Part shown: piece by piece, positions 47,985 to 54,291 of the stretch | Numbering within the stretch: position 1 is the first letter of the stretch | How the letters are laid out: each line of letters opens with the position of its first letter | NCBI GenBank assembly: GCA_964016885.1 | Contig: OZ024741.1 | Span: 315,704,001 to 315,768,000, forward strand | From: Eledone cirrhosa | Lineage: Eukaryota | DNA length: 64,000 nucleotides | Reading direction: 5' to 3' | Position numbers and translations under genes: made by a program | Notes under the pieces: generated by a model | The model's input: only the letters and a program-made list of their open reading frames with translations | Told to the model about the DNA's origin: nothing | Database searches by the model: none

Positions 47985-52842
<4,858 letters not shown>

Positions 52843-53058
52843 GTTAAAGATGTACATCCATATATGTATACTGAAATACTAGTATGTATATGAATACACA
52901 CACGTATACATATGTAGATGTACCAAGTTTTTTCACTGGTCACTTTACTGTGAGTGGCCAGCTATTCTGTATGTAAACACACAGACAAACCGGTTTTTAG
53001 AGTCATACTGGTTTTTGAGGAAACACCTTTCCTCTATTCTCCAGAAAGCCAGACAAGG

Positions 53059-53103
53059 AATATTGAACTAGTTTCGTTGTTGTTACAACTCATCAGCAAT
53101 ATT
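53059..53103 (-). ncRNA. Type I minimal hammerhead ribozyme (family B)
   Basis: Reverse complement of 53893-53937. Confidence 0.88.
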
Positions 53104-53892
53104 TACCTATCTTCCGGCCTCTCTAGAGAATCGTAAAAGCACATATCGTTATATGCTTTTTCTATGAAAATTAGTAGTGGGCAGACTAATTTGCATAGAG
53201 TGTGAGTAAGTACCGGTTCAACGGAGACGATAAAAATAAATAACGAAACGAAATTAAATTTCGTTTCATTTGTAACTCACTTTTGTATGACTGACGCTTA
53301 AACAATTAAGTTAAAGATGTACATCCATATATGTATACTGAAATACTAGTATGTATATGAATACACACACGTATACATATGTAGATGTACCAAGTTTTTT
53401 CACTGGTCACTTTACTGTGAGTGGCCAGCTATTCTGTATGTAAACACACAGACAAACCGGTTTTTAGAGTCATACTGGTTTTTGAGGAAACACCTTTCCT
53501 CTATTCTCCTGAAAGCCAGACAAGGACTCTAAAAACCGGTTTGTCTGTGTGTTTACATACAGAATAGCTGGCCACTCACAGTAAAGTGACCAGTGAAAAA
53601 ACTTGGTACATCTACATATGTATACGTGTGTGTATTCATATACATACTAGTATTTCAGTATACATATATGGATGTACATCTTTAACTTAATTGTTTAAGC
53701 GTCAGTCATACAAAAGTGAGTTACAAATGAAACGAAATTTAATTTCGTTTCGTTATTTGTTTTTATCGTCTCCGTTGAACCGGTACTTACTCACACTCTA
53801 TGCAAATTAGTCTGCCCACTACTAATTTTCATAGAAAAAGCATATAACGATATGTGCTTTTACGATTCTCTAGAGAGGCCGGAAGATAGGTA

Positions 53893-53937
53893 AATATTGC
53901 TGATGAGTTGTAACAACAACGAAACTAGTTCAATATT
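53893..53937 (+). ncRNA. Type I minimal hammerhead ribozyme (family B)
   Basis: aatattg-CTGATGA-gttgt-aaca-acaac-GAAAC-TA-GTT-caatatt; 7-bp stem I, 5-bp stem II, palindromic AACTAGTT. Confidence 0.9.
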
Positions 53938-54226
53938 CCTTGTCTGGCTTTCTGGAGAATAGAGGAAAGGTGTTTCCTCAAAAACCAGTATGACTCTAAA
54001 AACCGGTTTGTCTGTGTGTTTACATACAGAATAGCTGGCCACTCACAGTAAAGTGACCAGTGAAAAAACTTGGTACATCTACATATGTATACGTGTGTGT
54101 ATTCATATACATACTAGTATTTCAGTATACATATATGGATGTACATCTTTAACTTAATTGTTTAAGTGTCAGTCATACAAAAGTGAGTTACAAATGAAAC
54201 GAAATTTAATTTCGTTTCGTTATTTG

Positions 54227-54291
<65 letters not shown>

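Follow-up and report, generated by a model that had tools for sequence, protein, structure and literature searches.

A young, protein-free hammerhead repeat of Eledone cirrhosa with a likely snRNA-type promoter word and a likely PLE-dependent entry into both strands of (TA)n

We analysed a stretch of 64,000 nucleotides from Eledone cirrhosa (assembly GCA_964016885.1, contig OZ024741.1, positions 315,704,001 to 315,768,000; hereafter the window), in which a (TA)n-flanked insertion sits inside the (TA)n end of an insertion of a Neptune-type PLE, termed Neptune-W (Table 1). The tandem-plus-palindrome layout proposed in an earlier, sequence-only reading was borne out. Two arms stand head to head, both cross a unit junction (467 to 1), and they meet in the centre at a 2-nt microhomology. 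The arms differ at only 1 of 635 common positions, in agreement with the young age assigned to the insertion before. The palindrome shows a regular asymmetry: the terminal hairpin, which had been described for the unit, was found on the right arm but not on the left. The unit is non-coding as claimed, with a period of 467 nt instead of the approximately 466 nt originally given, and the octamer noted at monomer position +34, ATGCAAAT, indeed begins at 53800.

At the locus, no ORF of at least 150 aa was found, and the GC content was 0.34-0.36 in the 2-kb bins containing the insertion. None of 100 shuffled sequences folded as well as the monomer. The element thus combines the features by which retrozymes are recognised, namely a type I hammerhead in each unit of a short tandem repeat, a lack of coding capacity, a GC content under 45-50%, and strong self-pairing. 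Judged by these sequence features, it is a non-LTR retrozyme. At 54295-54342 of the window, the (TA)n is abutted by the end of a different short repeat, likewise abundant, that contains a palindrome; the end of this repeat also lies beside three other loci (L042, L055, L264).

Table 1. Positions (window coordinates) of the retrozyme insertion, its parts, and its immediate surroundings
Feature	Position	Strand	Remarks
Neptune-W, Neptune-type PLE insertion	48107..52808	-	frameshifted RT and GIY-YIG at 49366-52190 (Pfam)
Neptune-W inverted terminal repeat	about 52330-52808		part of the 48107..52808 insertion
(TA)n target, left side	52809..52836	.	
Whole retrozyme insertion (family A)	52837..54233	.	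two head-to-head 5'-truncated tandem arms
Left arm	52837..53526	-	monomer 171-467 plus 1-393, 690 nt; terminus at no-tail site
Hammerhead, second copy	53043..53114	-	
12-nt element, second copy	53186..53197	-	
Right arm	53525..54233	+	monomer 226-467 plus 1-467, 709 nt; terminus at tail site
Complete 467-nt monomer	53767..54233	+	strongly self-paired, z -11.6
12-nt element TATGCAAATTAG	53799..53810	+	matches upstream element of host U6, U6atac, RNase MRP; 5' hairpin arm
TATA-like word	53842..53847	+	43-44 nt past the 12-mer; within hairpin
Type I hammerhead	53882..53953	+	core 53893-53937 (45 nt), predicted cut after 53930
Inner RT start site, putative (monomer 393-398)	54159..54164	+	used at no-tail ends
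PLE-type tail	54165..54233	+	hairpin 54193-54221, T5 run 54227-54231
Outer RT start site, putative	monomer 465-467	+	within the 54165..54233 tail
(TA)n target, right side	54234..54294	.	

A DNA search for the monomer across the 3.0-Gb assembly yielded 281 matches from 40 scored candidates, in dispersed arrays and with 99-100% identity among the matches listed. Exact junctions numbered 1,858 at tail ends (control, 0) and 1,976 at no-tail ends (control, 32), which corresponds to at least about 1,900 insertions genome-wide. The genome-wide search for copies that the sequence-only reading had suggested thus located them at about two thousand dispersed places, inserted in (TA)n. Subfamilies of this family A span 86 to 100% identity. 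An older sister family of about 446 nt, family B, aligns with A from end to end and has the same two ends. Two insertions of family B lie in the window itself (3231-4395 and 10385-10810), with the same 12-mer, the ACTAGT stem III, and the two-end pattern; both show a U-U mismatch at the base of stem II. A further family of hammerhead repeats in tandem, whose period is 459 nt and whose stem II is long, was observed inserted behind a Neptune element (L249:6700-7600).

The hammerhead has a stem I of 7 bp, extended beyond a UA bulge, a stem II of 5 bp, and a stem III of 2 bp on the palindrome ACTAGT. The cleavage triplet is a GUU site at 53930, where the unit RNA is predicted to cut itself. The clean 45-nt type I core was recovered as described in the initial reading, but the ribozyme is not minimal, because stem I runs past the UA bulge, as in Rfam HH9. 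The match to HH9 (E value of 1.6e-7, 37.7 bits) is under the gathering score of 52, and the Rfam search at gathering thresholds gave no match for the element. Stems I and II each contained three pairs that had changed on both sides among 14 subfamily representatives. This covariation score was reached by none of 500 shuffles, a control that is inflated by the kinship of the representatives. One of the compensatory stem changes was present as well in contigs from other DNA sets. According to the available text of a recent preprint, eight of nine Xenopus retrozymes did not cleave in vitro (bioRxiv 10.64898/2026.07.22.740005), which we count against the explanation favoured below.

The octamer is part of the 12-nt element TATGCAAATTAG. 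In the host, the element TATG(C/G)(A/T)AAT(T/G)AG occurs at -77 to -79, with a TATA at -30, in three U6 loci, U6atac, and RNase MRP. A matrix was built from these host genes, with U6 contributing three distinct loci, U6atac its best match, and RNase MRP its one gene; U6 and U6atac matches lacking the element (L240, L241, L268-L272), probably retrocopies, were left out. On this matrix, the monomer scored 23.0 bits, compared with 12.6-21.2 bits for the host genes (leave-one-out) and at most 6.4 bits for U1 upstream regions, and none of 400 shuffles reached the value of the monomer. Host U1 genes lack the element and carry a different word near -60. Across both strands of 662 kb of PLE loci, the 12-nt word occurred four times, always in family B, where it is retained despite the divergence of that family; the octamer was altered in 2 of the 14 subfamily representatives. 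The hairpin that includes the 12-mer showed no two-sided change, its 5' arm being fixed and its 3' arm variable, and the conservation of the 12-mer therefore points to sequence recognition. Thus, the postulated snRNA-type promoter word is present, but the 'octamer' corresponds to the upstream element of host Pol III-class genes and not to a distal octamer enhancer. The promoter of newt satellite 2 has an octamer.

Other features fit a promoter less well. In families A and B, 43-44 nt separate the 12-mer from its TATA-like word, versus 47-49 nt in host genes, so that the two are 4-5 nt too close, and the distal word near -260, common to host U1 and U6, was not found in the 14 representatives. 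Family A units close with a T5 run, one B subfamily has T6, and several A subfamilies contain a second, internal T5. Since host Pol III genes terminate at T5-T10, Pol III read-through into the next ribozyme is doubtful. The notion that the transcribed part is free of T4 runs holds for the window subfamily and family B, but was rejected because it fails for several A subfamilies. On balance, we lean towards the 12-mer and the TATA-like word forming a working promoter. In the host U1 and U6 promoters (L207-L246, L267, L273), the TATA lies at about -30 in both classes and the distal word near -260 is common to them, whereas the proximal element and its distance differ. This layout is reminiscent of plant snRNA promoters.

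The arms are 5'-truncated at variable points, and their ends are fixed at either 465-467 or 393-398. On contig C1, where the 89 of 100 listed tail ends that fall inside the covered range were compared with 100 listed no-tail ends, all 53 divergent end pairs within 20 kb combined a tail with a no-tail end (one pair is a local duplicate). By inspection of 60 further loci, chosen as unpaired, we found 30 tail/no-tail pairs with variant junctions, one no-tail/no-tail pair, one composite, and no tail/tail pair, the remainder being one-armed, incomplete, or false matches. In a set of 96 loci, 37 were one-armed, incomplete, or without clear assignment; among the no-tail/no-tail calls of this set, L056 looks real, and L051 and L052 are doubtful. 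Two other such candidates, L170 and L183, were rejected, as both terminate in tails. No-tail junctions fell into three registers two bases apart in 65 of 81 cases (23, 19, and 23), from which we infer a loose pairing of the (TA)n 3' end with the RNA.

An inverted 5'-truncated arm with partial tandems, a tail at one end, and an AT-rich or microsatellite target are features of a non-autonomous PLE. Inverted 5'-truncated copies and a tail at a single end are described as PLE hallmarks in the available sections of PMC8557442. For the purified Anolis PLE protein, cutting and extension of both target strands have been reported, with a tail that is the stretch bounded by two RT start sites (PMC11167929, in part). 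Penelope-type mobilisation into (TA)n, as first put forward from the single locus, is supported by the genomic evidence, that is, the PLE end signatures and the (TA)n flanks, and a PLE very probably mobilises the retrozyme. Two arms (L051 and L188/L275) terminate at monomer 129-130, just ahead of the hammerhead core, perhaps at a rare third start site.

The two arms of an insertion are closely related. In 26 of 56 two-armed loci, the arm-to-arm distance was 0, and in 34 it was at most 0.5%; arms from different loci would be expected to be that close in only about 4 of 56. Arrays of 10-19 units had their own variants, common to both arms, and three long arrays (L047, L063, L064) had private variants that recurred in all units on both sides. 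The longer arm may be of either kind (32 vs 21), and arm lengths, which reach 5.6 kb, were uncorrelated. In view of the shared haplotypes and independent arm lengths, the simplest reading is twin priming with a monomer bottleneck, i.e., an RT rolling around a circle, a route put forward for retrozymes in the available text of PMC7229834. We consider twin priming on one RNA likely and regard a circular RNA as the more probable template, with somewhat less confidence. A 497-nt contig in X4 is compatible with tandem DNA as much as with a circle. Among 113 5' breakpoints, 9 lay at the cut site (5.1 expected) and 1 at the predicted start (3.9 expected), with no clear enrichment at either. The start of the left arm 6 nt past the cleavage site was considered as RT run-off at a cleaved 5' end; this was rejected and the proximity is ascribed to chance, because the 113 breakpoints lack a clear excess there. 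One family A unit (L184:847-970) contains a cluster of sense-strand A>G changes, as if an edited RNA had been copied. For the family as a whole, a signature of A-to-I editing was rejected, since there was no overall A>G excess (48 vs 37, p 0.28).

The explanation that we favour, and hold to be reasonably probable, is that of a young, protein-free hammerhead repeat, likely driven by the snRNA-type word, whose RNA is predicted to circularise and which is likely inserted by a PLE from both nicked (TA)n strands. The 12-mer and TATA-like word of one unit would start transcription near monomer 107-111, just ahead of the ribozyme. The transcript would read into the next hammerhead, so that a promoter-containing 467-nt unit could be freed and ligated into a circle. 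A PLE enzyme would then nick both (TA)n strands, and the 3' ends would prime at 465-467 and 393-398 on one RNA. Each RT may roll for up to about 12 units before the cDNAs join via short microhomologies or internal hairpins. A more specific version appears somewhat unlikely. It holds that a host U6-class promoter was captured inside a protein-free RNA circle, that every dimer written can transcribe itself, and that an intact Neptune-type PLE dimer carries out the insertion by priming both target strands at two fixed sites of one and the same circle and rolling in either direction. If true, it would amount to a complete, reconstitutable life cycle of an animal retrozyme in which promoter, ribozyme, start sites, and helper enzyme are named.

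Among the alternatives, an uncut linear multimeric transcript survives best, although we consider it unlikely. Here, read-through from outside promoters would supply the RNA, the 12-mer would be a relic or an RNA stem, circles would play no part, and a PLE would still be the mobiliser. Hammerhead mutants left Anolis PLE insertion unimpaired, with unprocessed RNA as the main substrate (PMC11167929, in part). In L037 and L057, two haplotypes alternate along the array, which a linear multimer or a dimer circle explains equally well and which speaks against the favoured explanation. The spacing mismatch between 12-mer and TATA-like word, the T runs, and the breakpoint counts also agree with a linear template. 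However, such a template could not lengthen arrays or carry a new variant into all units of both arms, and most arrays are uniform. As to the 12-mer as a stem, its hairpin lacks two-sided change, and the fixed 5' arm matches host promoters.

The inverted arm could also arise by fold-back, i.e., self-priming of a single cDNA followed by endonuclease resolution, rather than by double priming. Self-priming has been proposed for PLE palindromes (available sections of PMC3846280), 9 of 58 arm junctions lie at internal hairpins with an overlap of 18-68 nt, and variants are partially mirrored in L057. Yet 40 of the 58 junctions have an overlap of just 0-9 nt, arm lengths are independent, and both strands are extended in vitro by the Anolis PLE (PMC11167929). 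Of 122 minority variants, no more than 24 had a mirror counterpart in the other arm, and 18 of these are alignment artefacts at L035 and L159; this test is weak, as later mutations are unmirrored under twin priming and fold-back alike. We therefore regard fold-back as quite improbable and twin priming as the better account of the inverted arm.

The sequence-only reading had itself raised the possibility that the monomer is merely the pLTR of an autonomous Penelope element, in which case the arrays would be truncated copies of that element. PLE terminal repeats do bear type I hammerheads and tails, and Xenopus retrozymes resemble pLTRs (bioRxiv 10.64898/2026.07.22.740005, available text). Nevertheless, this origin is highly improbable. 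In 37 + 59 + 60 loci (less than one tenth of the insertions), no known-PLE ORF lay upstream and in line with the monomer, and in none of about 155 loci did the monomer serve as terminal repeat to an ORF. The monomer formed the own end of none of 20 + 30 + 20 PLE loci, no RT and GIY-YIG ORF was found between terminal repeats in the loci sampled, and the arrays reach about 12 ORF-free units per arm. We find it scarcely credible that DNA recombination spread a common satellite, that a Helitron-like rolling circle was at work, or that the assembly is in error: Helitron-type elements also show tandem arrays and a terminal hairpin, but the insertions are dispersed and have two constant ends and inversion points that vary, the ribozyme covaries, other inversion-type joints are present in independent short-read contigs, and the tail/no-tail end rule largely refutes these readings.

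As the helper under the favoured explanation, Neptune-W is the likeliest candidate, a role that we assign only tentatively. It carries a CX4CxxC linker, and the Neptune clade label is based on this linker and the published description, not on a tree. All 150 scored matches were identical across 120 aa, 18 of them in open frames of 784 aa, and by this measure Neptune-W is a young family. It paired its own tail and no-tail ends in all eight resolved insertions (30 loci). At L274, a tail arm of family A and a 5'-truncated Neptune-W ending at its no-tail site are fused head to head with no (TA)n between them. This is the one clean retrozyme/Neptune-W chimera in about 155 loci, and a search of 60 loci for further chimeras found none. 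It could stem from a later deletion, as in L346, which looks like a later deletion joining an arm to a flanking repeat. Less clean joins occur at L275 and, between family B and another PLE family, at L067 and L081.

The Neptune-W terminal repeat gave no alignment with the monomer above shuffles, and a brief resemblance of family B ends to those of Neptune-W was rejected by a shuffle test. No terminal sequence common to the monomer and an autonomous PLE was found in Neptune-W or in 70 PLE loci, which represent part of the PLE families. PLE-X and other Neptune families (L247, L248, L250) were dismissed as partners, as they share no end with the monomer. PLE-X is a very abundant PLE family (window 7510-10385, minus strand) with its own hammerhead at 7872. 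In 2 of 20 loci (L067, L081), it directly abuts arms of family B, possibly as chimeric insertions. In the Neptune-W terminal repeat, an apparent hammerhead-like fold was seen by eye at 52653-52690 (+) and 48293-48256 (-), with a variant core in which UUGAAAA replaces CUGANGA and GCAA replaces GAAA.

The element resembles the metazoan non-LTR retrozymes (Cervera and de la Pena 2020, PMC7229834; Li, Clavereau and Pollet 2026, bioRxiv 10.64898/2026.07.22.740005; both in their available sections) in its non-coding tandem type I hammerhead unit, low GC, strong self-pairing, and range from dimers to long arrays; PLE mobilisers and rolling RT have been proposed there as well. Its 467 nt lie at the upper end of the published size range. 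An internal promoter, head-to-head arms, and a fixed tail/no-tail pairing are not described in the available sections of PMC7229834 or of the 2026 preprint, whose survey includes no mollusc and which argues that retrozymes are non-autonomous PLE derivatives. With EN+ PLEs, as portrayed in parts of Craig et al. 2021 (PMC8557442), Frangieh et al. 2024 (PMC11167929), and Arkhipova et al. 2013 (PMC3846280), it shares 5' truncation, partial tandems, an inverted 5'-truncated arm, a one-ended tail, AT-rich or (TA)n targets, and two RT start sites bounding the tail. In contrast to these, it has no ORF, its tail measures about 70 nt instead of 30-40 nt, and its arms extend to about 12 units. Furthermore, the Anolis enzyme initiated without homology, whereas the registers of the retrozyme suggest short primer-template pairing.

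Newt satellite 2, too, is built of hammerhead repeats in tandem that harbour an internal promoter of the snRNA type (cited in PMC2220036 and PMC6765202); Pol II was reported there, whereas the word described here fits the host U6/U6atac/MRP class and not U1. The Schistosoma Sm-alpha repeats combine tandem hammerheads with their own Pol III promoter, and tandems are needed because cleavage leaves the promoter at the unit's 3' end (PMC6765202, PMC2220036; available sections). Sm-alpha is SINE-like, while the retrozyme promoter would resemble the U6 class, whose elements lie upstream (type 3). MRC1 and similar elements of Chlamys are non-autonomous PLE derivatives with multicopy head-to-tail insertions; according to the available sections of PMC8557442, they lack canonical hammerheads and share 3' sequence with an autonomous partner, of which no counterpart was found here.

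The claim that the combination is undescribed was overstated, because PLE-derived retrozymes, the PLE tail and inversion structure, and the newt hammerhead with an snRNA promoter have all been published (bioRxiv 10.64898/2026.07.22.740005, PMC8557442, PMC11167929, PMC2220036; available sections). In the literature searched, which covered few subscription journals, we found neither a cephalopod retrozyme nor a U6-type promoter in a retrozyme, nor a description of strictly paired ends together with a single haplotype in each insertion. The class is known; new would be the U6-class element in a retrozyme, the near-strict end pairing, and the single haplotype per insertion. These bear on unsettled points, namely the transcription of animal retrozymes, the enzyme that copies them, and the only partly solved formation of PLE tails and inverted arms. 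The family supplies thousands of young insertions, a mutable promoter word, and a candidate helper, encoded in the same genome, that retains long open frames, and each step of the proposed life cycle becomes directly testable by experiment. Elsewhere in the window, several LINE-type RT and endonuclease fragments were observed at 25048-34110 and 61927-63880.
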